From: a virus | IMG/VR virus record: IMGVR_UViG_3300045988_171725 | Coordinates: 32,001-96,000 of that record | Strand: one strand, 5' to 3' | Length of the DNA: 64,000 bases | Part shown: positions 35,912 to 49,638 of the stretch, piece by piece | Layout: the number at the start of each line of letters is the position of its first letter | Numbering within the stretch: the first letter of the stretch is position 1 | Translations under genes and position numbers: made by a program | Notes under the pieces: model-generated | The model's database searches: none | What the model was told of the DNA's origin: nothing | The model's input: only the letters and a program-made list of their open reading frames with translations

Positions 35912-38900
35912 ATGGATTTTAATAAAAACATAGGTGATATAGTTTATCATAAAAATTTTGGAAAGGGAAAAGTTACTAAAATTGACAGAGATGGTGACAG
36001 TTTGTCGATTGAGGTTTCTTTTGAAGAAGCTGGAAAACGTAAATCTTCAGGATTAGGTGTTATACCAAAAACTGCGCAATTTAGAGGCGTTGATTTTCAA
36101 TCTTTTTTTTCAGATACAAAAGCCAAAACAAAATCTTTATCGGGAGAAATAAGTAAAAATCGTGTAGTTGATACAACGTCTTATAAAGGTTATAGTTTTG
36201 AAAAATTACCAGAAAGTGATTTAAAGGCAATTCAGGAAGCCGTGAGAACTGGCGTTATAAAAGGCGTAGAAGATTTAAAAAAAATGTTACCAGCGGGCAG
36301 AACTATACCTTTGGAATATTTAAAATTATTAGAGGGTAAAAGCCCGACTGGCGAAAGATTACATGAGTATCAGGAAAGTGGCAAAACCGCAGAATTATAT
36401 AAAGATATTTTTAAGGGTATAAAAACAATAAGTATAACGCAGGGTAGTAAAATTCTTTTTGGTGATGATTATGCGGACGAGAATCAACTTAATAAATATC
36501 AAGAAGAAATCAACAAAAAAATTGCCGAAGTTAATAAAAAAATAGAAAGTGCTGATATAAAAACAAGAGCGATTTTAAATGATCGAAAAGCAGAGTTAGA
36601 AGAATCTAATAGAGAGTTACAGCGGCAAAGAAAACAAGCAAAAGATCAATATTCTGCTAAAGGTGGCACAGTCTTTCATAGCTTTGTCGAGATGTTGGCA
36701 CTTAATAAACTCCCGAAACTTAAAGAGGCTCTTTATTCTGGGGATAAAGAGCTCGCAGAGAATTTAATCAGAAATTACTTTTCAAAAGGTGCCACCGCCC
36801 AAACTTTAATAAAAGATAGCTCGACTAATTTTTCGGAATCGGATTCTGAAATTTTAGATGAATTTTTAAGTAAAATTAAAGATTTTGTTAATGTTGGTGG
36901 CGGAAGCGGCAGCTTCGCAACTGGTTTACAAAATTATGTAAACTTTTTAAAAGATAATAACATCACTTTAACCGATGCTGTTGAAAAAAGTATTGGCTTT
37001 GTCACGAACATCAATGATGAGTTGGTTAAATTTGTCGGAACGGTAGATGCGCTGTTCAGCGGATATCTTTTAGATCTAAAAACTGGTTCTATGCACCCAA
37101 ATGCAATTGCTTGGCAAGTTAATATGGGCAATTTCATACAGACAATGCTTGGCGGAGAGCCTGCGAAACATTTAGGGGCTTTCAACCCTGGCATGTATGG
37201 TAAAAGGGCAGGATATTTACCAGTTGAACAAATACCGTTGGAAACAATGAAAAAACTTATTGTTCAGGCGGCTATGGGAGAAAGAACCGACATTGATTTA
37301 ACCAAGTATGTAAAAGGAAGCGTTAGCACAGGCGTTGTAAAAAGAAGAGGCGAAGAGAAACAAGCTACCTTTATTAATAGTAAAGAAATGTATACTGGTG
37401 GTTACGGAGCAGAAAAACCAGAGTTACAAAAAGACATAGACAAACTAAATCGCGAAGCTAAAGAATTAGTCGAAAGCATAAAAACACTAAAAGGCGACGA
37501 TCTTGAACATATTTTAAATCAGATATATAGCACTAAAGATTATTCGCAAGGCGGAATTGAAAGTAATAAGTTTTATCGTCATGGATATTTCTGGGATCTC
37601 GTTCGCAGTATGTTGCCGTATGATATTTCTACTGTTTTAAATTATGCGATGAACGAGGGTGCAGCAATCCCTGCTACTAAGGGCGTTGGAACAAAAACAT
37701 ATAGAATAGAACAAGGCGAAGACGAACCGATTGCTGAAATAGATGTTCCAACTGTTTTAGGTATAAGTTTAAAGCAGTGGGCAAAATTGGCCAACATACT
37801 GTCTGAACTTCCTGATGGCGCAAATAAGGTGAAAAGACTTGCCGAATTGTTTGAAAAAGAATTCAAAAGTTTTAGTGTAGATGAACAAAGAAAAGTATTA
37901 TCCTCGTTCGAAACATTAATGACTCGAGAAGAAAATTTTAATCCAGAATATATTAAATTAAAAAAGCAGCAGGAATTATTGCGTGCAAAAATTCAAAAGC
38001 CTGAATCCTTTGGTGATGTAAATGTAGAAGAACTTCAGAAGGAATTAGATAAAACAAATGAAATTGTTTCTGAAATGGAAAAGTCTGGCGAATTGAATTT
38101 TTATCAAAATTTTGAAACCGCTTGGACAGACGTTGCCGATGAAATATCATGGAATAACCGCGAACTTCTGCAAGAGAGTATGACGGATTTTAAATCTGTG
38201 AAAATAGCAAGTGAAGATGCGAGACGTGGCGATAGGGAATATATGCCAGATGTTTTCGACTTAGAAACCGATCAAGATGGGCAACGTTATTATTCTGCGA
38301 GTGAATTCGAGACAGACCCAATTAAAAGCGCGACAATGACGGCGAACAGATTAGGACGAATTTTAGATTATTCTGCAAGAATTGATAAAGCGATAGAGCC
38401 GATGGCGCAAGAAATGGGAGTTTCGGTGGTTGATTTGGCAAAAACATTATTGCGAGATTTTGCCGAACAGACTGGAAGTTCCGATTCGTTTAATCGTTAT
38501 ATTAGAAGTAAAGAGTTGGCGGAAGACTTTAAAAAGCAATTCCCAAGTTTCGAAGGCAAAATCACAAAAGATGTAAGTAATTGGATTTATGACCGTTTAG
38601 ATTCCACTATCAAAGAAGAGCGCGAAGCTTTACTTGGAGTGACTGAAAGTCAAGAAGCGGGCGAAGTCACAACTTATAAAATCGGACCAAGCGGGGAGAT
38701 GTTAGATAAACATGCAACAAAGCCTTATGCGTTATTGCAAAATATATTAGGTAGAAGACTTTATTCTACTCTTTATAAATCTACAGATTCTATTCCGATA
38801 GAAGTGCTCGATGATTTAATTAAAGGTAAATCTTTAGAGTTGACGGAAAGAGTGGGGGCGGATTTGCCAGCCTCGTCAGATCACTCGAAAGAAGCCGTAA

Positions 38901-41499
38901 AAAAACGCGAAGCGCAAATAAGAAAAATAGATGAAGAGGCTGAAGAGAGAGAGAAAAGTTGGGTTGAGCAGTTTTTAAATTACGACGAACTCTTACCCGA
39001 AGCTCAAGAGCTTTTACAAAACTATATCAACACTTATAAAGAATATAAGGCAGCCGAAAAAGAACTATCCTTTTATGGTGGCGAAAACACACCAGAACAA
39101 AAATTCGAGGAATCTGATTGGAGTTATAAAGAAAGGTTAAAAGATTGGGAAAAGGTAAAAAGAAACTTCGATGAAAAAAAGAAGCAGATGGAAGAGGTTA
39201 ATGAAAACATAAAAAAGACGTTCCCATCTGGTAGAGTCGAGGGTTATAGTTCTGAAAAAATGTCGGAATTCTTAAAAAGGCGCGCAGAAGAAGGCATTGA
39301 GCAACAAAGACAAAAAAATATCGGATATGCTGCATTGTATTCTTATAGGTTCTCTGATAAAAAGAAGGCCGAACTTACACCCGAAGAAATTAATGAATAT
39401 TTGGATTACTATTCTGAACAATTTGGAATGACCACCGATGAGTTGTTGAATCTTTATAGACAAGAAAATGTTTATATGGGATTCAACGACTTTTTAAAGA
39501 AAATTGCTCAAGGACAAGATAAACGCCTGGTTTATTTTTCACCAAAAAAAATTAAAGCAGCAACAATAAAAGGCGCAGCCGATGGTGTTACTCGGGGTGT
39601 TACTAATACGGTAGAAAATATAGATCAGAAAAGCGTTGAAGAGAATGTTGCTAAAGCCGTATCGGATTCCATAAATATTGGCGAGGTTGAACCCAAAGAA
39701 GCAAGGAAGATATTACGAGATCCTGAGACCAACACACCAATAAATTCTGACGGAACGATAAACGAAGAACAGTGGTTAAAAGAACTAGATGAGAGCTTAC
39801 AGCGTTATCCAGTAGAACTTGAAAATGAATATTTTAAAAGGTTATTCAAAGATTCGCCTGATGATTATGTCCGTTTTGAAAAAGAGGTTAAAAGAACGAA
39901 GAAAGATGGAAGAAGAAACAGAACAGATCTGCGTAAATTTTTCAAGAGTGGAAATTGTGGCGACTTTGACTACAAAGATCTTCAACACGATCTCTATAAC
40001 ATAGAAATGCGAGAGGAACTTCCAGACTATTTAAAAACAAAGGAAGAGATATCCGAAGAAGAACATGGTGTCGTAATCGAAGGTGAAAATAAGGATACAC
40101 AAAAAGAGCTCATTCAAACAACAAAAGAAGAAGTTCAAGTTAAAAAACAAGGAATCGAACAAGAAAAACAAATCCAAGAAGTTCTCGATGACAAAACAAA
40201 GGAAACCAAGAAAAATGTTGATGTCGTTGAAGAAACTGGACGAGTTGAAAAACAGAACCTTGAATTAGAAAAGCAAGTACAAGAAGCAAAAAAAAAGAAA
40301 GTTACTGCAGAAAAAGATGTCAACACCTCTTTGTCGTCCAAAACTTCGATGATACCCGATAATATTTTAAAGGTGCAAGCGACAAGTGCTGACATTTCAG
40401 ATTTATCTAGAACTAAAGCAACTTCGATTACAACTGATTACGAAGGTCACACAATTGGCAAAACTTATAAATATCTTAATGATAAGGTTTTTGCTGATTA
40501 TGGTTCTGGTGGTCTTCAGGCGTGGATCGAGAATGCTAAACAGATTGGTATTGATGCAGCTAAAGCCGAATTGATAGGGATTTTGACTAAAGTTCCATCG
40601 TATAAGAAATCATCTGGCGGTTTGAGTAAAGCTGGAAGAACTGCGTTTGATGAAATAATGACCGATGCTTTTGGCGCTTCATATCAACCGCAACAAGGAC
40701 TTGGAGCCATATTATCCGAAGTCCAAGGTATTCATAAAGATACGTCTTCGATAGATGCGAAGATGGATTATTTGTCTGGCGGCGGAGGTGGCGCCCCATC
40801 TAATAAAATGGAAGTTTCATCTGACGGTGGTGCTGGAGGCGGAGATGAAGGTGGTAAAAAACCACCGAAATCTGGCGGTAGAAAAGGCAAGAGCGATGAA
40901 GAGAAGGCACAAGCGGATACTGAAAAACGGCAGAAACAAGATATAAGGGAATATCAACAGTATATTAACAGAGTTATAAGCCTTGAATCTCAGATTGATA
41001 AGCTTCAAAGGCAAGCAACATTAAGCGGCGGTAAACACAAAGATGCTATTTATGGAACAATTGACGCGCTTAATGAAGAGCTTGGGGATCTCAATCGTAA
41101 TAACGACGCGCTCAAACAAAGGGTTGCGACCGAACAAGCAGCAACAAAAGAATCGATCGACGCAACAGCAGCTCTTAGGAAACAATCAAATGCGCAAAAG
41201 AATCTTGTAAGCGTAAAAGGCGCGACCTCTATCTGGGATATGATGGCGAACGATATTCGCCGTGCGACCATGCGTGTTGCAGACTTCGGAATTGCTGCGA
41301 AGATTTTGAACAAGATCCCGCAGGATATACAGAAGGTAATCCAGTATACGAAAGAATTGGACGCGGCGATGACGAATATTCGTGTCGTCACGGGTGCTAC
41401 GGCGGAAGAGGCTCAAACGCTCGCACAAGGATATACACAACTTGCAAAAGAATTGGGGATAACCACTGTCGAAGTTGCTAATTCGGCAAACGAGTGGGT
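35912..41499 (+). CDS. Tape measure protein, exon 1
   Basis: SD GGAGGT precedes ATG 35912. It is long and K/E-rich, with coiled-coil character. The last ~100 codons begin the conserved tape-measure core (...MTNIRVVTGATAEEAQTLAQGYTQLAKELGITTVEVANSANEWV). The exon end is set by P1 pairing (see findings). Confidence 0.75.
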
Positions 41500-42673
41500 T
41501 AACAAATGTCTGGCTCACTATAAACTCCTTTAATTGCTGGAACCCCCTTAGAGCCATATAACTACAACATAACGATGAAATAGGCGTAAGTGTGATAGTT
41601 AAAAATATATGGATTGGGAAATCAGCAGCCAAACCTCGAACAGAGGAAGGTTCAACGAATATGTTCCACGAGTGTGGATAATGGGGAGCTCTACATAGAG
41701 AAATCTATGCGAAAGATATATTCTGAACTTCTGAGGAAACTCAGAGAAAATTCTATAAAAGGAGGTGAAATATTTGTGATAATAGAAAGTGAAGTTAAAA
41801 TGGTTATAAATCAATATAATTTTGATTATTATAAAAATCTTGGTTACGATATTCAAAAATGTGGACAACGAATTTTTGTAAAAGTTTCTGATTTACCAAA
41901 AACATCTGGGACAAAAATCCATACGATATGTGAATATTGTGGAGAAATAGTAGAAAAATCATACCGAAGGTATATAGAATCTATCGAATGTGGGAAAAAC
42001 TGTTGTTCAAAATGTTTGAAATACAAAATTCCTGAAAATGCTTTAGAAAAATACGGATGTCGTTCTACTTTAAGAATTCCAGAAATTCATGAATCGGTAA
42101 CTAAAAATAATCTTAAGAAGTATGGTTGTGAAAACCCTCTTGAATCAGCAGAAATTAGGGCTAAAGGTGTTCAGACTATGCAGAGTCGTTATGGTTGTAG
42201 TTATACCCTTCAAAGTGATGAATTACGTGAAAAGTGTAATCGGACATTATATGAAAATGGGAACGATATAACTGCGACAAGCAGACAACAAAGATATTTG
42301 TGTGATTTATACAAAGGAGAATTGAATTATCCTATTTGGATTTATCACATAGACATTTTGTTGTCGGACAACATATGTTGCGAATATGATGGAAGCGGTC
42401 ACGATCTTAGTGTTAAATTAGGTAATGAAACAAGAGAAAACTTTATTAGAAAAGAAAATAAAAGAATAACCTTTTTAACAAACCACAATTATAAGTTATT
42501 TAAAATACTTTCTAACACAGATATTTTGCCTAGTGATGAGATACTTTTAAACATAAAGAAACGGGCTTTTGAAATATTAAAAGTCCGAAATTATATGTAT
42601 TATGAGTACAATTTAGACACAAATATAGAATCTTTTAAATGATAAACTAAATTTAAAAGTAACACAATTACAG
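41500..42673 (+). mobile_element. Group I intron 1 (ribozyme core 5' of its ORF)
   Basis: P1 pairs exon AGUGGGU (41493-41499) with GCUCACU (41513-41519), with a U-G pair at the splice site. P/Q/R/S-like elements are ATTGCTGGAA (41533-42), AAATCAGCAGCC (41619-30), GTTCAACGAATAT (41650-62) and AAGATATATTCTGAAC (41713-28). The last nucleotide is G (42673). Confidence 0.7.
41776..42642 (+). CDS. Intron-encoded homing-endonuclease-like protein (zinc ribbon + KYG repeats + PD-(D/E)XK-like core)
   Basis: SD AAGGAGGTG precedes GTG 41776 (alternative ATG 41800); the track start at 41614 would translate the ribozyme core. Motifs: CEYCGE...CCSKC; repeats EKYGCRSTL, KKYGCENPL and SRYGCSYTL; core HIDILLSDNICCEYDGSGHD. 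Confidence 0.7.
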   Translation: MIIESEVKMVINQYNFDYYKNLGYDIQKCGQRIFVKVSDLPKTSGTKIHTICEYCGEIVEKSYRRYIESIECGKNCCSKCLKYKIPENALEKYGCRSTLRIPEIHESVTKNNLKKYGCENPLESAEIRAKGVQTMQSRYGCSYTLQSDELREKCNRTLYENGNDITATSRQQRYLCDLYKGELNYPIWIYHIDILLSDNICCEYDGSGHDLSVKLGNETRENFIRKENKRITFLTNHNYKLFKILSNTDILPSDEILLNIKKRAFEILKVRNYMYYEYNLDTNIESFK

Positions 42674-43250
42674 ACAAGGTTACGCAGGGGAAGAAGCCAA
42701 TCAATTGATTGTCGCTTCCTCGAAACTCGCTAAACTCGGTATGATTTCGACCACTGAGGCAACTAAAGATTTGACGAGCGCGATAAAAGGCTTTAAACTT
42801 TCGACAGAAGACGCGATGTCGGTTGTCGATAAATTGACAAAAATAGACCAAGTGGCTGCAATTTCCGCAGGAAATTTAGCGGAAGGTCTCGCGCGAGTCT
42901 CCACTACCGCTCAACAAGCAGGGCTTTCGCTCGACGAAACCGCCGCAATGGTAACTACGATTACCGAAGTTACGCAGCGTGACGCAAGCACGGCGGGTGA
43001 GGCGCTCAGAACTCTTATTTCGAGATACTCTAACGTTAAAGCGGGCGTATTCACGGATATGAGCGATAGCGCCGAAGAGACTTCGGGTAATATTAACGAT
43101 ATCGAAAAAGTATTGGGTAAGTTAGGGATTAGAATTCGTACTTCTGGAACTGAAATGAGAAGTATCGAAGATGTCCTTGACGAATTGGCTGAAAAGTGGG
43201 ATACACTTGATGATGTAAGTCGTAATGCAGTTGCGAGTGCTTTTGCTGGT
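42674..43250 (+). CDS. Tape measure protein, exon 2
   Basis: It carries the conserved core QGYAGEEANQLIVASSKLAKLGMISTTEATKDLTSAIKGFKL...STAGEALRTLISRYSNVK...AVASAFAG. There is no SD or ATG of its own. Confidence 0.8.
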
Positions 43251-44688
43251 AGGATGACGTATGCCAGAAATTATGGAAACATAATTTGTTAAGCACTATA
43301 AATAAATAACAAGGAAGATTGCTATATCGGTGAAGTTCTGGGGACAGATAATACCGAGGAAAGATTAAATATTAATAGTGAATAAGTAAATAACAAGGAG
43401 GTGATTTTCATGAAATGGGAGCAGTGGCAGATAGATTATCTTAAAGAAAATTGGGATAAATATTTAGATAAAGATTTGATGAAATATTTGGGCGTTAGCC
43501 CAGATTGTTTCTATGCTAAAAAGCGAGAATTAGGGTGCCTCCGATTCAAATGGACAGAGGAAAAGATAGAATTGTTAAAGAAGTATTATCCGATCGCTTC
43601 TTGGGAAGAGCTATTTCAAATTTTAGGTTGTAATAAAAGATCTTCGATAACTTCTATGGCTCACTTAAATGGTATAAGCCGAGATGTTTATAATAACAAC
43701 AAATTATCAAACTCCGACAAAGAATTTGTCAAAAACAACCACATGAATATGTCTGTTCATGAAATGTCTGACGTTATTGGTAAAAGAGCTGAATATATAT
43801 CAAACTATGCACGTAATAATCATATAAGAGTTTATTTTGGGCACGAGATAAGACCGTGGGACGAAGAATTATTCATTGAATTATATCCAAAATATACAAA
43901 CAAATATTTACATGAAAAATATTTTCCGTATTTAAGTAGGGCACAATTGCGTTCGCAAGCTAAAAAATATGGATTGGTTAAAAATAAAGAGAAAAGTGTT
44001 AAATGGTTTGATAAAGAGCAACTTTTAGAAGATTTAGAAAAGGCTACAAGAGAGCTGGGAAGAGTCCCTTTGTTAATCGAGTTTCAATCGCTCGGCTTAC
44101 CAACTGAAGCGACATACAGAAGATATTTTGGGTCTGTAACGAAAGCATTTGAGCTTATAGGAATAAAAAGACCATGCTATGTTCATGGTCAATGCCATAA
44201 GTTAATGGTATATAGAGATAAAAATGATAATTTTTGTCTATCTATGTCGGAAGTAATTATAAGTAACATTCTAATAGATTTCGGCATAACATTTGAAAAA
44301 GAAGTCCCTTATAAAAATTTTGTTGACGACGAGGATATTGGCGAAAAGATTAGCGATTGGAAGATTGGTAATAAAATAATCGAATATTTTGGAATGGTAG
44401 ATTATAAAGATTATAATGATGGTATGAATTTAAAAATCGAAATTTGCAAAAGACACAATATTTCATTATTAGCATTATATCCTGAAGATCAAAAAGATAT
44501 CGATAAGATGAAACAAAAGATAAAAGAATTTATTAATATTTAAAATCCGTAGAGACTATACGCAGTCAACCGTATAAGGTTAAGATATAGTCCGACCTGC
44601 ACGTATAATCCAATTAAAAAGAAGGTGCAGAAATAGCCAGAAATGGTTATTCGCCTGTATTATTACAGGTATGAAAAGTAACAAAAAG
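43251..44688 (+). mobile_element. Group I intron 2
   Basis: P1 pairs exon CUGGU (43246-50) with GCCAG (43263-67), with a U-G pair at the splice site. The S element AAGATATAGTCC (44582-93) matches the classical consensus 12/12. P7 pairs GACTATA (44554-60) with TATAGTC (44586-92). The last nucleotide is G (44688). Confidence 0.8.
43410..44543 (+). CDS. Intron-encoded homing-endonuclease-like protein (Myb/HTH-like repeats, HE-associated repeat, PD-(D/E)XK-like C-terminus)
   Basis: SD AAGGAGGTG precedes ATG 43410. The segment LLEDLEKATRELGRVPLLIEFQSLGLPTEATYRRYFGSVTKAFELIGI resembles the 'homing endonuclease associated repeat'. The C-terminus reads SEVIISNILIDFGITFEKE...DWKIGNKIIEYFG. Confidence 0.7.
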   Translation: MKWEQWQIDYLKENWDKYLDKDLMKYLGVSPDCFYAKKRELGCLRFKWTEEKIELLKKYYPIASWEELFQILGCNKRSSITSMAHLNGISRDVYNNNKLSNSDKEFVKNNHMNMSVHEMSDVIGKRAEYISNYARNNHIRVYFGHEIRPWDEELFIELYPKYTNKYLHEKYFPYLSRAQLRSQAKKYGLVKNKEKSVKWFDKEQLLEDLEKATRELGRVPLLIEFQSLGLPTEATYRRYFGSVTKAFELIGIKRPCYVHGQCHKLMVYRDKNDNFCLSMSEVIISNILIDFGITFEKEVPYKNFVDDEDIGEKISDWKIGNKIIEYFGMVDYKDYNDGMNLKIEICKRHNISLLALYPEDQKDIDKMKQKIKEFINI

Positions 44689-47421
44689 GTACGTCAACGT
44701 GAATCATTCAATATATTATTAAGCAACTGGGATCGTGTAAAGGAACTCACTGAAGAATCCGCTAACGCCGCAGGAACTGCCGACGAGAAGTATTCCGCTT
44801 ATATGGACTCCATGGAGGCGGCGACGAAGCGGCTTCAAAACGCGTGGGAAGGATTTACTCAATCGCTTGAAACAAGCACGGTAATGAAATTCCTCACGAA
44901 TTCAGTCGCGCTTTTGGTCGAGAATGCCGACAAACTCAAATATATAATAACCGTGTTTGCAGCTGCGAGTTCAGCAAAAATTTTTGACTTCTTTACCAGC
45001 AAAGGCGAAACAGGCGGGTTTAAAGGTTTAATCGCCAACATCCCGTTTATAGGCAGAGGAACGAAAACTAACAATATACTCGAAAGTATTGACAAAAAAG
45101 TCGGAGATATTCGAGGAGAGGTTCAGAAAGACAAAAGTGGAATTACTAAAAATGGTAGTCTAATTAGTAAGATTGGGCAATACGCAGCCGATAAACGTAC
45201 TGTAGGAAAAGATCGTAAGTTTATAAAAGATTATGAAAGTGGTAAATTCGATTCTGTAACTGATCCATCAATACAAAACGCTTATTATAAAAGATATTTG
45301 GGTGCCAAACAAAATTTATCATCAGATGATAACGAAGCGTTAAAGCGTTTGCTGGATGCGAAAGCTGCGAGAATGACCGCATTCGCTCAAACAGCAGCCG
45401 TCTCTGGAATTGCTACCTTAGCAACTCAATTAATGACAACGAAGCAAGTTTCTGGTTACGGCCAAACCGTTGAAGAAACTGGTGGTGACAAAGCGTTAAG
45501 AACTGGGCTTGCCACTGCTGGCTCAGTAGCTGGTGCGGCAACCGCCCTTATCCCCGTTATAGGACCTATGATAGCTCCAATCGTTTCTTCTTTGGGCTCA
45601 ATTGCTGGCGAAGGTTTGGCTGGATTAATAGCTAAATGGGCTCATAAAGACGAGCTTCAAATGAAGCAGCGTGTTGCCGAAGCCAAAGAAAATCTTTCTG
45701 CACTTGGCGATATAAAAACCGCTATCGAAAATAACGAGGATTTATTGAACAAAGACTCCTATACATCTAAAGATTACGAAAAGTTAAAATTATACGCCGA
45801 TTCTTTAAGAGAAAAATTCGCTAATAATGAAGATTTAGCTAAATTGTTTTTAGCCGATGTTCATAATCTTGATATTGGAACATTTACGACAATTGAAGAC
45901 GTTCTCTCTCAAATTACTAAGGGGAATGTCGATATCAATAAGCAACTTAAGAGGCAATTAGAGCTCACGACTGCCAGATTAACGGTAGAGAGCACCCTCG
46001 GCAAACAGGAAGAAGATAGAAAAAAAATACAAGAATACGTTGGTAAAAAATATGAATCGGATCGATCTGGTGTAAAAGCAAATTATTTATTTAAAGATCC
46101 AAATGATACATATTATACACGTAGTAATTTATTGGATTTTTATACAAGAGAAGATATTGCTAACCTTCTAAACACTGCAACTTATACTACTAATGGTGTT
46201 ACCTATCAAGGCAAAACATATAGTGGACCTGAAAAAATAGACTATATTCAAATAAAAGGAAACGATATAGAAGAAGTTCTTCAAAATGCGCAAAAAATCC
46301 TTGAAGAGGTAAGAAAAGGTTATTCTGAAACAAATAAAAATCTTGTATCTGAATGGGAAACAATTGTAAATAATTTATCAAAACAATTAGATAACCAGAA
46401 AAAATTAAATGCAAAACTTTTATCTACCCAAGTTGATTATGCTTATTTAACGTCCGATATTTTAAACACTAAGTCTCGTGATGAAATACGTGATCTTGGT
46501 ATGGAAGGCGTTGTTAAGATAATTCGTGACGAACTAATTTCGCAAGGTGTTGGTGTGGTTGATGAGAATGGAGTAATTCATCAAGACGCTTATGATGCCA
46601 TCGTTAAAAAAATACGTTCCGACTCGACTTTGAGTGATTATATAACGAAAGATATTCGCTCGATTGGGGATCTTATTTCTAAAGACGATATACAAGGTAT
46701 TGAATCGTTTGCAAGAGCGTTTGGTTTAACAACCGAGGCGGCGAAAGAGCTTGGTAAGCAGTTCGGATATTTAACTCAATCAATGGGTTTGATGAACGTT
46801 CAAGAGACGACGGAATACTATGAGAAACTGAGTACGGTATTTTCAAATTTAAGTTCGAATGTCGCTTTGACCGCAGGACAGATCAACAGTCTTTTGACGA
46901 CCTCTGAACTCAAAGATTTGCTTCCGTATTTGATGAATCAAGACGACCCTGACGCTTTGATAAAGGAACTTTATAAGAGAATTTACGGCGGCGGGCAGGA
47001 TGTCCATATGGAGAACGCGCTTTATGACGCGACCATGGGAATGTCGACCGATAAATTCAGAGAATACTTGCAAAACAAAGGGTTAAAAGAATATGTTGCT
47101 GAAATCGACAAAGGCGGGTATACCACCTTATCTCAAATTAGAGATGCAGTTAAAGAATTTGATGAGACAGACCCGAGACGCCAAGAGTTTTTGGAATATC
47201 TTGAAACGATAAATTATACTTACTCCAAAGACTTAACAGCTTTAGAGAAGCCGTCTAAGTATATTAAATCTCAACTCGAAGAGCAAATAAATAATCTCCA
47301 AGAGCAAAAAGATGCTTTGTCTCAAATTAATGACGAGAGAGAAAAAGAACTCAATCTAATTAAAGCGAAACAAGCGCTCGAAGACGCTCGGAAAGAAAAG
47401 AGAAGGGTTTATAGACAGGGT
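44689..47421 (+). CDS. Tape measure protein, exon 3
   Basis: It starts VRQRESFNILLSNWDRVKELTEESANAAGTADEKYSAYMDSMEAATKRLQNAWE, continuing the core from exon 2. It contains a hydrophobic Gly/Ala segment (TAAVSGIATLA...GPMIAPIVSSLGSIAGEGLAGLI) and long coiled coil. Confidence 0.8.
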
Positions 47422-48660
47422 AAACAAATATGCCCTTAAGTAACTATATCGGTTAAAACCTAGAAGTAGGTAAGACCGAGGTAAGATAAATTTTAAAATG
47501 TTAATATGCAATAAAATATAAATAAATTAAAAAAGGAGGTGATGACATGGAAAATAATATTAAAGAAGATTTGATAGCGTTAACCAACGAACAGGCAAAG
47601 AAGATTAATGCTGAAATTATTGAAAGATTTACGGGGAAAGACGGTAAGGCAAAGTTAAAAATACGCTCTTTATCATATCCCGAAAAAGGAGTAAGGGTCG
47701 TTGATCGATATAATTTCTTGCACTCCACTGCCCAATATAGATATTTTAACGCCGTGACTTGTAAAAATGATTTATTGAGACATGAAGAAATAACATCTAG
47801 AATTGATATAATTGGAGATTATATCAACACTGCGACAAAAATTTTATGCAAATGTAAAATTTGTAGCAATGAATGGATGGTAACTCCAAACAAATTATTA
47901 CAAGGTCGTGGATGCCCTAAGTGTGCTTCACAAAAAGCACATCGGGCTTACTCTAAATCACATGAAGAATTTATAAATGAATTAAAAAACGTCAACCCTT
48001 CTATCATGATACTTGATGAATATTATAATAATCGCACTAAAATAAGATACAAGTGTAATATTTGTAATAAAGTATCTATGTCTACTCCTTGTAAATTATT
48101 AAACGGGGAGAGCGGGTGCCATTTTTGTAAAAGCTCGATCGGTGAACAGAAGATATTCTGTTTTTTATTTGCCCACAAAGTACCATTTGAGAGAGAAAAA
48201 TATTTTGAAGATTGTAAAGATAAAGGGAAATTACCTTTTGACTTTTATTTATCTGATTATAATATTTGTATTGAATTTCAAGGTGAACAACATTTCCGTC
48301 CAGTAGACTTTTCATATACTCCAACTGAGGAATCGAAAAATAAAGCCGTTGAAAAATTTAAAGGTATTCAGAAGCGTGATAAAATAAAAGCAGAATATTG
48401 TAAACAGAATGGAATACGTCTTTTAATTATTGATTATAAACAAATAAAAAATATAGAAAGCATATTAACAAAAGAATTAAATTTATCAACCGTAACGACT
48501 GCAGGATCTTTGTGGTAACATAAAGATTGAAGTTACTTCAATATGTTTTAGACATATTGTAATATACAGTCTGAACTCGTAATATAACGAAATGAAATAC
48601 GAGAGTAAGGATTAACGTCCTTGCCGCCACATTTATTGTGGTCATAAAAGTAACAGATTG
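47422..48660 (+). mobile_element. Group I intron 3
   Basis: P1 pairs exon AGGGU (47417-21) with GCCCU (47432-36), with a U-G pair at the splice site. It shares CTATATCGGT...ACCGAGG and the 3' motif AAAAGTAACA with intron 2. An S-like element AATATACAGTCTGAAC lies at 48561-76. The last nucleotide is G (48660). Confidence 0.7.
47547..48518 (+). CDS. Intron-encoded homing-endonuclease-like protein (two zinc ribbons + PD-(D/E)XK-like core)
   Basis: SD AAGGAGGTG precedes ATG 47547. Motifs: CKCKIC...CPKC and YKCNIC...CHFC; core LPFDFYLSDYNICIEFQGEQHF...KRDKIK. Confidence 0.75.
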   Translation: MENNIKEDLIALTNEQAKKINAEIIERFTGKDGKAKLKIRSLSYPEKGVRVVDRYNFLHSTAQYRYFNAVTCKNDLLRHEEITSRIDIIGDYINTATKILCKCKICSNEWMVTPNKLLQGRGCPKCASQKAHRAYSKSHEEFINELKNVNPSIMILDEYYNNRTKIRYKCNICNKVSMSTPCKLLNGESGCHFCKSSIGEQKIFCFLFAHKVPFEREKYFEDCKDKGKLPFDFYLSDYNICIEFQGEQHFRPVDFSYTPTEESKNKAVEKFKGIQKRDKIKAEYCKQNGIRLLIIDYKQIKNIESILTKELNLSTVTTAGSLW

Positions 48661-49638
48661 ATTGGCTTCGTTATGGAAAGCAATGAGGAAGCAATTGCCG
48701 AAGCGCAAAAAAATCTCGAAAACTTAAATACTCAAAAACGCCAAGAAAATCTTCAGACGCAGATCGACACGCTTCAGATGCAGAAAGACATTATCGAAGC
48801 TCTTCCAAATCAGGCTCAACTTGAACAAACCAAAAAGATTTGGGAATTGTGGGCAGCGGATAAGGGAACGAAAGGAAGTCTTGCTTCCGTAACCGAAGGC
48901 GTAACGATGTTGGCGGATGCTTATACAAATGCCACAAATCGGATGAATATGCGTGCTAAAACAGAAGGGGTTCTAAATACACCTGATGAAAAGAGCAGTA
49001 TGCAGACATCTGATGAAAATACTAACCCCGTTATCACCCTTAGTGAAACTCAAATAGAATATACCAAAGCCTTAGTTTCTAACGTGGATGATATTAGAAA
49101 TATCTTATTAGGGAAACATACTAAAAACTTCCAAAATATGTTGGATTTCGTGAACAAAAACAACATGTTACAAGGCGATTATGCACGGTGGGGAGAAATG
49201 TTCAGAGCTGCTGGTATATTAAACGAATGGAATTCTTTGTCTGACAAAGAGAAAGAAGCTATTAGAAGCCAAGCAAATACGAGAGCGGGTGGAGACATTT
49301 CCTTCCAAGGCGGTAAAGCTCTTATCAACGAACTTGGAACCGAAGCGGTCATCACACCTGGCGGCACGCTCACCGCGCTTCCTTCGAAGACGGGTATCGT
49401 CCCTGCGGACATAACCCGAAACGTTTGGGCGCTCGGGGAAGTTGCTCCGACGTTGGTCGCACAGCTCGGTTCGCTTACGCAAAAGACGCTTTCTGGCAAC
49501 GCTGGAAACACGACCTACGAAGAGGGTCAATACTTCGACAACTTTACGATGAACGTTTACCCCGCAAAAGGCGACGACTTGAGCAAGATCCTGGAGCAAG
49601 CACGTGCACAAATGCGGCTTACGCGTCATAATAATTAA
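48661..49638 (+). CDS. Tape measure protein, exon 4 (C-terminal part)
   Basis: It begins IGFVMESNEEAIAEAQ..., with no SD of its own. The C-terminal pattern GGKALINELGTEAVITPGGTLTALPSKTGIVPADIT is typical of tape-measure C-termini as I recall them. Confidence 0.75.
   Translation: MGFVMESNEEAIAEAQKNLENLNTQKRQENLQTQIDTLQMQKDIIEALPNQAQLEQTKKIWELWAADKGTKGSLASVTEGVTMLADAYTNATNRMNMRAKTEGVLNTPDEKSSMQTSDENTNPVITLSETQIEYTKALVSNVDDIRNILLGKHTKNFQNMLDFVNKNNMLQGDYARWGEMFRAAGILNEWNSLSDKEKEAIRSQANTRAGGDISFQGGKALINELGTEAVITPGGTLTALPSKTGIVPADITRNVWALGEVAPTLVAQLGSLTQKTLSGNAGNTTYEEGQYFDNFTMNVYPAKGDDLSKILEQARAQMRLTRHNN

Follow-up and report, generated by a model that had tools for sequence, protein, structure and literature searches.

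A probable group I intron with a putative homing endonuclease gene in the tape measure protein gene of an uncultured large phage

The tape measure protein (TMP) gene at positions 35912-49638 of the 64,000-nucleotide stretch of viral DNA analyzed here (hereafter the window; all features described lie on its + strand) is very large and encodes one protein of ~3300 residues. It is cut by three insertions, each with an open reading frame (ORF) of its own, into four exon-sized ORFs. The second insertion, intron 2, occupies window 43251-44688 (1438 nt) between a glycine codon (GGU) and a valine codon (GUA), and it is very probably a group I intron that is functional or was so very recently. A first-pass annotation of the window had proposed a group I intron at this position, a reading that is supported by the exactness of the insertion, a full set of helices from P1 to P10, covariation among relatives, a link to an ORF-less relative that Rfam recognizes (L111), and the predicted endonuclease fold of the intron-encoded protein.

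Exact insertion in the TMP gene and its empty allele

Joining window positions 43250 and 44689 keeps the reading frame, just as the first-pass annotation had claimed: the exons rejoin as GCU GGU|GUA CGU and encode ...AFAG-VRQRESF.... The spliced exon 2/3 peptide of the TMP matches PF10145 in Pfam (E = 4.5e-25), with the junction at the C-terminal edge of that domain, in a conserved AG-x-x-Q motif. Phages Perkons, VRE9_3, AM5, BUCT083, and Stahl have intron-less TMPs that share the AG..Q motif, and all five align without a gap across AFAG|VRQ.

An empty allele of the same site is found on IMG/VR contig L125, which matches the window at 97% nucleotide identity over window 40797-43249 and 46351-48997. 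This contig carries introns 1 and 3 of the TMP gene and is without exactly the 1438 nt of intron 2, window positions 43250 and 44689 being adjacent there (GCTTTTGCGGGC|GTTCGCCAACG at the empty site vs. GCTTTTGCTGGT|GTACGTCAACG in the window). Comparing L125:4337-4360 with the window reveals four differences, none more than 6 nt from the junction on either side and all of them synonymous (GCG GGC|GTT CGC vs. GCT GGT|GTA CGT). These changes would weaken P1 and P10, the pairings between the intron and its exons; the base at position -1 in L125 is C, while the splice-site wobble needs U. The synonymous cluster might represent either a co-conversion scar or a cleavage-resistant allele. A second contig, L148, carries intron 2 at 94% identity and is without intron 1, and the presence and absence patterns on L125 and L148 show that the three TMP introns are gained and lost independently.

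A 145-kb ENA scaffold (BRIT16-1_SAMN02333917_METAG-scaffold_56) is 100% identical to the window over 41910-46043. No meaningful nucleotide match was found among deposited phages, either by megablast of the region or by blastn of the ORF-deleted intron; the TMP likewise has no close protein match among deposited phages or GTDB genomes, and no relative of the spliced TMP peptide was found on GTDB genome contigs. Since no similar deposited phage or GTDB genome was found, the carrier of intron 2 is taken to be an uncultured large phage of ~145 kb; the name of the ENA scaffold points to a metagenome associated with humans.

RNA structure and covariation of intron 2

Every string cited in the first-pass annotation lies at the position given for it, and the P1 helix it described is present. 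The last 5 nt of exon 2, CUGGU (43246-43250), provide the 5' strand of P1 and pair with GCCAG (43263-67) across a 12-nt loop, with a U43250·G43263 wobble at the 5' splice-site U. GCCAG is part of an internal guide sequence (43256-43267) that also contains GACGUAU (43256-62), which pairs with the first 7 nt of exon 3, GUACGUC (44689-44695), to form a 7-bp P10. The GAAA-capped hairpin noted earlier is P2 (43268-43287), an 8-bp stem in the minimum-free-energy fold (AAAUUAUG-GAAA-CAUAAUUU); its counterpart in homologues occupies this same position but differs in sequence.

The catalytic core follows on both sides of the ORF. P3 pairs GAUUGC (43317-22) with GCAGUC (44562-67), and five of its six pairs are compensatory in both alignments described below. 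P4 (UCGGU, 43327-31, with ACCGA, 43353-57), which is backed by covariation and by the fold, encloses P5 (UCUG, 43337-40, with CAGA, 43345-48; GGGA loop), and the J4/5 and J5/4 segments between them are A-rich. Mapped through the Rfam alignment of L111, the P4/P5 region (43327-43357) corresponds to the classical P and Q elements; the CUAUAUCGGU...ACCGAGG string that the first-pass annotation reported from both intron 2 and intron 3 is indeed found in each. P6 (GG, 43358-59, with CC, 44547-48) leads to P6a, in which 43365-77 (UUAAAUAUUAAUA) and 44531-43 are perfect 13-bp complements that bracket the ORF. On the 3' side of the ORF, J6/7 (GUAGA), the 5' strand of P7 (GACUA, 44554-58, plus UA), and the 3' strand of P3 make up the R element (44549-44567). 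P7 (44554-58 with 44588-92) forms a pseudoknot with P3, and the P8 hairpin (AACC-GUAUAA-GGUU, 44568-44581) directly abuts the 3' strand of P3. The S element (44582-44593) consists of J8/7 (AAGAUA) and the 3' strand of P7 (UAGUC), and the R-like AGAGACUAUAC (44551-61) and S-like AAGAUAUAGUCC (44582-93) strings are both in place.

Beyond the core, the minimum-free-energy fold contains P9 (44597-602 with 44625-30) and P9.2 (44653-59 with 44664-70), between which lies P9.1 (44632-39 with 44644-51; GAAA loop); the previously listed CUGCAC/GUGCAG and CCUGUA-UUAU-UACAGG hairpins are present in this region. The 3' tail AUGAAAAGUAACAAAAAG (44671-44688) ends ...AAAAGUAACAAAAAG with G44688 as the terminal base, as originally called, and a GUAACA motif followed by a G within 4-6 nt recurs at the 3' ends of relatives.

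P3, P5, P6, P8, P9.1, and the 7-bp P10 extend the list of helices in the first-pass annotation, and three of its structural claims require revision. Its perfect 7-bp P7 exists as a complementarity (GACUAUA/UAUAGUC), but only the inner 5 bp (GACUA/UAGUC) are conserved or covary in relatives, and the two outer pairs are specific to the intron 2 subfamily. Its 12/12 match to the S element depends on the consensus chosen; against the Rfam consensus, the match is 11/11 upper-case positions. Finally, the ORF does not sit in an internal loop, as had been stated, but lies in the loop that caps P6a.

The 64-kb window has a single copy of the pattern GACTATA-N12-40-AAGATATAGTCC, and none appeared in 100 dinucleotide-preserving shuffles. 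Local folds gave z-scores of -4.0 for P1+P2, -2.1 for P4+P5, and -5.4 for P9+P9.1+P9.2.

Covariation was assessed in two independently gathered sets of relatives, across which P1, P10, P3, P4, P5, P7, and P8 all show compensatory changes. The first, a MAFFT alignment of ORF-deleted intron 2 with 12 viral-contig introns found via RNA motifs (A2), was 95.3% paired with 14 pairs changed on both sides, a value reached by 0/500 shuffles; shifted registers were 28-46% paired. Intron 2 itself forms 28/28 core pairs, and all four P8 pairs covary in A2. The second set comprises the cores of seven TMP introns that were gathered via the intron protein rather than the RNA (A5). It was 97.1% paired with 12 compensatory pairs, two of which lie in P7 (C-G to G-C or G·U, and U-A to C-G).

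The exon-binding helices were aligned separately for seven homologous TMP introns (A4). P1 was 100% paired in this alignment, the splice-site U·G was invariant (7/7), and five of the seven P10 pairs were compensatory. The guide sequences follow each host's own exon, including its synonymous variation: where the -4 exon base, a third codon position, is U, G, or A, the guide has A, C, or U, respectively. A perfect 10-20 bp P6a stem surrounds the ORF in 7/7 TMP introns, each time with a different sequence, and its starting point downstream of GGAAAGA varies by no more than 1 nt among the seven. The terminal G is present in four of the five homologues checked, while L142 ends in A. At ~3208 of this contig (Logan SRR27279352_26351), the frame and a perfect 7-bp P10 put the 3' splice site after A (AAAATTTA|ATTAGGC), an anomaly that would reflect a non-G terminal base, an assembly error, or another element further downstream.

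More than 119 loci in IMG/VR contain the P7...S pattern, and 24 were found with a stricter pattern that included J6/7. One of these relatives, the ORF-less L111:2045-2280, scores 85.3 bits (E = 6e-20) against the Rfam model Intron_gpI (RF00028; curated gathering score, 50 bits), and other ORF-less relatives (L099, L068, L069, and L060) score 60-75 bits. L111 and intron 2 have the strings UAUAUCGGUG, ACCGAGGAAAGAUUA, AUCCGUAGAGACUAUACG, and AAGAUAUAGUCCGA in common, their P3 and P8 differ in a compensatory manner, and the 3' half of intron 2 matches L111 in nhmmer (E = 1e-6).

These data bear on whether the resemblance to a group I intron might be accidental, with a free-standing nuclease gene lying between two genes among chance hairpins and an S-like string. 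The region is AT-rich, so hairpins are common there, and intron 2 has no Rfam match at the gathering score. However, the P7...S pattern is absent from every shuffle, the flanking ORFs are contiguous in one protein in homologues, the covariation exceeds that of every shuffle and shifted register, and an ORF-less homologue reaches 85 bits against Rfam. We regard the likelihood of a chance resemblance as vanishingly small, and this explanation as effectively refuted already.

Several observations nevertheless count against a group I intron. Neither the whole window nor the 41-49.5 kb region yields an Intron_gpI match at the gathering score; the 3' half of intron 2 alone gives the sole match, a weak one (13.7 bits, E = 0.21), and the 5' half alone gives no Rfam match. 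The 1.15-kb ORF in the P6a loop prevents full alignment and would explain the miss, but intron 2 nonetheless fails this direct comparison. DNA and protein comparisons fix the intron ends only to ±1 nt, and the exact ends were chosen by the rule that U occupies position -1 and G the last intron position, which 43251-44688 alone satisfies. The A2 introns were chosen by the window's own P7 and J8/7 strings, making P7 and parts of J6/7 and J8/7 uninformative in that alignment, and we infer the splicing of intron 2 from its sequence. A weak terminator-like hairpin (43486-43505, + strand), with an 8-bp stem and a T-poor tail, also lies inside the ORF. Three terminator-like sites occur in 1.7 kb, compared with 0.6 expected. 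In separate searches, the ligated junction TTTGCTGGTGTACGTCAACG had two matches in metagenome and viral contigs, both in unrelated sequence, and the 5' splice-site string of intron 2 had no match in IMG/VR.

A different possibility is that the insertion stays in the RNA and the TMP is assembled, with no covalent link, from separate polypeptides encoded by the exon-sized ORFs, the intron core being a decayed relic. Gene callers do give separate ORFs, and phage genes split by endonuclease genes have precedent cited in PMC10448857. Furthermore, an in-frame ATG at 44671, within the 3' tail of the intron (44671-44688), carries the exon 3 frame into the intron and lengthens this ORF to 922 aa (starting MKSNKK), the call that the public ENA annotation uses. 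However, this ATG comes immediately after the P9.2 hairpin without a Shine-Dalgarno sequence, and the exon 2 piece has neither its own ATG start nor its own ribosome-binding site. The core helices are all intact, and they all covary among relatives whose proteins are 25-60% identical, which indicates that selection acts on the RNA; P1 and P10 also follow each host's exon. Assembly from separate polypeptides is therefore very improbable in our judgment, and the 922-aa exon 3 gene is an annotation artefact of an unrecognized intron.

As a group I intron, the primary transcript would fold into a P4-P6 domain, with the ORF looped out from P6a, and a P3-P9 domain containing the P3/P7 pseudoknot. 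The guide sequence (43256-67) would hold the 5' exon through P1, with U43250·G43263 at the splice site, and the 3' exon through P10. An external guanosine would then attack after U43250, and the freed 5' exon would attack after G44688, ligating the exons within the AG-x-x-Q motif.

Phage group I introns usually belong to subgroup IA (IA1/IA2), for which Michel and Westhof reportedly used the presence of P7.1 and P7.2 between the 3' strand of P3 and P8 as a criterion. In the td intron of phage T4, the archetypal phage group I intron (IA2, encoding I-TevI), ~40 nt (P7.1/P7.2) separate these two elements, whereas in intron 2 there are 0 nt between P3' (44562-67) and P8 (from 44568), with P7.1 and P7.2 absent. 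An assignment to subgroup IA2 was rejected for this absence, and by this criterion intron 2 would not belong to subgroup IA. The two introns are otherwise alike in several respects. Both loop their ORF out of P6a, the J8/7-P7' string of td (GAGAUAUAGUCU) is nearly equal to AAGAUAUAGUCC of intron 2, P9 starts similarly in both (CUGCA), and their 3' tails are similar (...AACAUAAUG in td vs. ...AACAAAAAG). In contrast, the td endonuclease is of the GIY-YIG class, while that of intron 2 is Vsr-like, and the host genes differ.

The intron-encoded protein and the movement of intron 2

The ORF of intron 2 (43410-44543) encodes 377 aa. Its homologues start at the same Met, and 6 nt separate the ATG from a strong upstream Shine-Dalgarno sequence, AAGGAGGUG (43395-43403); the stop codon is part of the P6a stem. 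An intein was rejected as an explanation, given that the exon 2 frame stops at 43290-92 and that translation of the ORF has a separate ribosome-binding site and start codon.

From its N terminus, the protein is predicted to consist of helical repeats, the PF18780 repeat, and, at the C-terminal end, a Vsr-like domain (~aa 270-377). Pfam recognized only the PF18780 "homing endonuclease associated repeat" (aa 201-253, E = 9e-11), and PHROGs gave an unnamed family together with a weak regulator-like match for the N-terminal repeats, which resemble GcrA-like and D5-like regulator helices only weakly. An AlphaFold2 model based on a 19-sequence alignment had a mean predicted local distance difference test (pLDDT) score of 86.8 and displayed repeated helical modules. 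The top PDB match of this model in Foldseek was the catalytic domain of I-Bth0305I (3r3p_A; probability 1.00, target template modeling score 0.76), with a root-mean-square deviation of 2.7 Å over ~100 columns at 20% identity; all other matches were poor. The C-terminal domain of the model thus best matches a Vsr-like catalytic fold.

The ORF has 18 homologues, and all those whose contigs were looked up lie inside TMP genes. Six non-identical homologues (P0002, P0003, P0006, P0007, P0012, and P0014; contigs L137 and L139-L143) occupy the same TMP site, directly after ...AG (GGU), although the TMP exon segments that flank them are only 25-60% identical to those of the window. The protein itself belongs to a cluster of 148 sequences (at least 90% identity) from JGI/IMG, ENA, Logan, and NCBI, and its identity across distant phages is 31-53%. 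When the ORF and its 18 homologues were aligned (A3, 19 sequences), C276, S278, E281, Y301, D316, W317, E325, G328, Y335, and K342 were invariant in the C-terminal domain.

The closest characterized protein is I-Bth0305I (PDB 3r3p), the prototype Vsr-like "EDxHD" homing endonuclease, which Bacillus phage 0305phi8-36 encodes within the group I intron of its recA gene and which carries repeated DNA-binding modules at its N terminus (PMC3239194). Like the intron 2 protein, it is encoded within a phage group I intron and combines N-terminal helical repeats with a C-terminal Vsr-like domain. However, the two proteins are ~20% identical with no sequence-level match, their N-terminal repeats differ, and the His and Asp of the I-Bth0305I family are missing from the intron 2 protein, in which a D...E...K set is invariant instead. 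Judging from the model, the intron 2 protein would work like I-Bth0305I and probably descends from its fold. We consider it probable that the ORF encodes an active homing endonuclease, whose DNA cleavage we infer.

Three results speak against this assignment: the E-value of the whole model in Foldseek was only 0.011, A3 contains no invariant His and thus lacks the catalytic EDxHD motif of I-Bth0305I, and PDB sequence searches with the ORF and with the family profile returned no nuclease match. Alternatively, the ribozyme could splice while the ORF product is an inactive relic, or a maturase or DNA-binding protein, of an intron that is only vertically inherited. This alternative draws on the unconserved His and Asp of the EDxHD motif (E281, D316, W317, E325, and K342 being invariant), on the lack of a sequence-level match to any solved nuclease, and on the L148 copy of intron 2, in which the ORF is frameshifted and the RNA core intact. 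In L148, a 1-nt insertion near 43967 (+1 frameshift) breaks the ORF into 190 and 189 aa, while the eight substitutions in the RNA parts all lie in loops or preserve pairing; within P9.1, for instance, 44638 C>U leaves a G·U pair and 44647 U>C changes G·U to G-C. Against an inactive product, the ORF is intact and conserved at the identities given above, both within its cluster of 148 and across distant phages, and a set of acidic and basic residues is invariant in a nuclease-like fold. The presence and absence of intron 2 in 97%-identical genomes, together with an adjoining mosaic block, also suggests recent movement. We consider it unlikely that the product has lost its homing endonuclease activity.

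The mosaic block is apparent when the window is compared with L125. On the left of the insertion site, identity stays at 99-100% as far as 42700 and drops to 87-94% over the final 250 nt; on the right, it is 81-93% just after the site, falls to ~55% over 45138-45638 and 46038-46338, and returns to 97% at 46438. The block thus spans window 43000-46430, with intron 2 at its left edge, as would be expected after homing with co-conversion or after recombination at an endonuclease site.

An active homing endonuclease would be translated from its own ribosome-binding site as a modular protein with helix-turn-helix-like repeats, the PF18780 repeat, and the Vsr-like domain. It would presumably cut intron-less TMP alleles near the insertion site during co-infection, and repair of the cut allele would copy the intron and flanking exon sequence into it. 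We further offer, as a tentative possibility that we rather doubt, that intron 2 belongs to a compact phage lineage without P7.1/P7.2 that has spread over very different targets (relatives with its J6/7-P7...J8/7 strings would interrupt phage tRNA genes, and about 16 introns would stand back to back on one viral contig), and that its endonuclease represents a His-less EDxHD branch with a D...E...K active site, new helical DNA-binding repeats, and specificity for AG|xxQ.

Other introns, known systems, and implications

The other two insertions in the TMP gene resemble intron 2 in carrying ORFs of their own. Intron 1 (~41499-42674) has an ORF at 41614-42642 that matches DUF7487 and a PHROG "homing endonuclease" family and includes the string C-E-Y-D-G-S-G-H-D, an apparently genuine EDxHD motif. 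In L148, where intron 1 is absent, window positions 41498 and 42675 are 5 nt apart; in L126, window 41757-42623, which covers most of the ORF, is deleted from intron 1. Rfam did not recognize intron 1, even as this ORF-deleted copy. Intron 3 (~47440-48657; ORF 47547-48518) carries the same CUAUAUCGGU...ACCGAGG (P4/P6) string and 3' tail AAAGUAACA as intron 2, but the 3' cores of the two introns differ. Its ORF matches phrog_559 (HNH endonuclease), CapR, and a zinc-ribbon domain, and intron 3 is present in L125 and, from BLAST spacing, apparently absent from L126. PDB sequence searches with the intron 1 and intron 3 ORFs returned no nuclease match.

Two contigs bear further insertions at or next to the site of intron 2. 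In L137:2862-4646 (Logan SRR33880924_5259), a 15-nt micro-exon, ACACGTCAACGTGAG (TRQRE), comes after the homologous TMP intron, and a second, ORF-less insertion of ~330 nt precedes the resumption of the exon. L129:4340-6105 (IMGVR_UViG_3300028048_001801) carries another kind of insertion at this AFAG| site, whose ORF is of the HNH type and 441 aa long. The first 17 nt of this insertion, including the guide, are those of a C. botulinum prophage intron in L143, while its core is unlike that of intron 2; A, not G, precedes the inferred 3' exon, and Rfam found no match in it.

On ten IMG/VR contigs (L025, L038, L044, L071, L104, L134, L032, L110, L109, and L135), close relatives of the intron 2 core have flanks that resemble tRNA halves; several of these relatives lie inside phage tRNA arrays, and some have zinc-ribbon ORFs. 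ARAGORN did not call the interrupted tRNAs of these contigs, whose sequences suggest group I introns in phage tRNA genes. Separately, L114:2390-10000 (IMGVR_UViG_3300032053_000045, 73.8 kb) is an exceptionally intron-dense phage sequence: within ~7.5 kb, no fewer than 12 group I introns are significant in Rfam, and 16 S-element motifs occur. Some of these introns stand back to back, less than ~20 nt apart, and one longer gap has a coding-like composition.

Group I introns have previously been described at three TMP sites (TMP-IVS1, IVS2, and IVS3) in prophages of the Bacillus cereus group, where different introns can occupy one site, P1 and P10 are adapted to the exon, and endonuclease genes have been lost (Tourasse & Kolstø 2008, PMC2504315). 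These introns share with intron 2 the kind of host gene, the occurrence of several introns per gene (three in the window), a presence that varies between related phages, the fit of P1 and P10 to the local exon, and endonuclease genes that are lost or decaying. The sharing of a site by different introns also has a parallel here, with the other, unclassified insertion of L129 at AFAG|. The B. cereus introns were described as IA1 or IA2, whereas intron 2 is without P7.1/P7.2, and the window has no detectable nucleotide similarity to any deposited phage.

The TMP gene of vibriophage ICP1 is likewise split by an intron with an endonuclease gene, of the HNH class and thus different from that of intron 2 (Barth et al. 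2023, PMC10448857). Splicing of the ICP1 intron was demonstrated on RNA, by RNA-seq and reverse transcription PCR, whereas that of intron 2 is predicted from DNA. The same study called TMP "frequently interrupted" and found endonuclease genes at the edges of exchanged blocks, just as intron 2 bounds the mosaic block relative to L125.

That TMP genes harbor group I introns is thus already documented, and intron 2 is an ordinary further case, mildly unusual in its lack of P7.1/P7.2 and in its His-less Vsr-like endonuclease. The latter could be modestly interesting as a divergent homing enzyme of the Vsr-like type, but current understanding is unchanged by any of these findings. For annotation, the four "genes" called at 35.9-49.6 kb are one TMP, which gene callers break apart. 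Since occupied, empty-site, and decayed-endonuclease alleles all exist in public data, intron 2 provides an unusually well-documented case of the life cycle of a phage homing intron.

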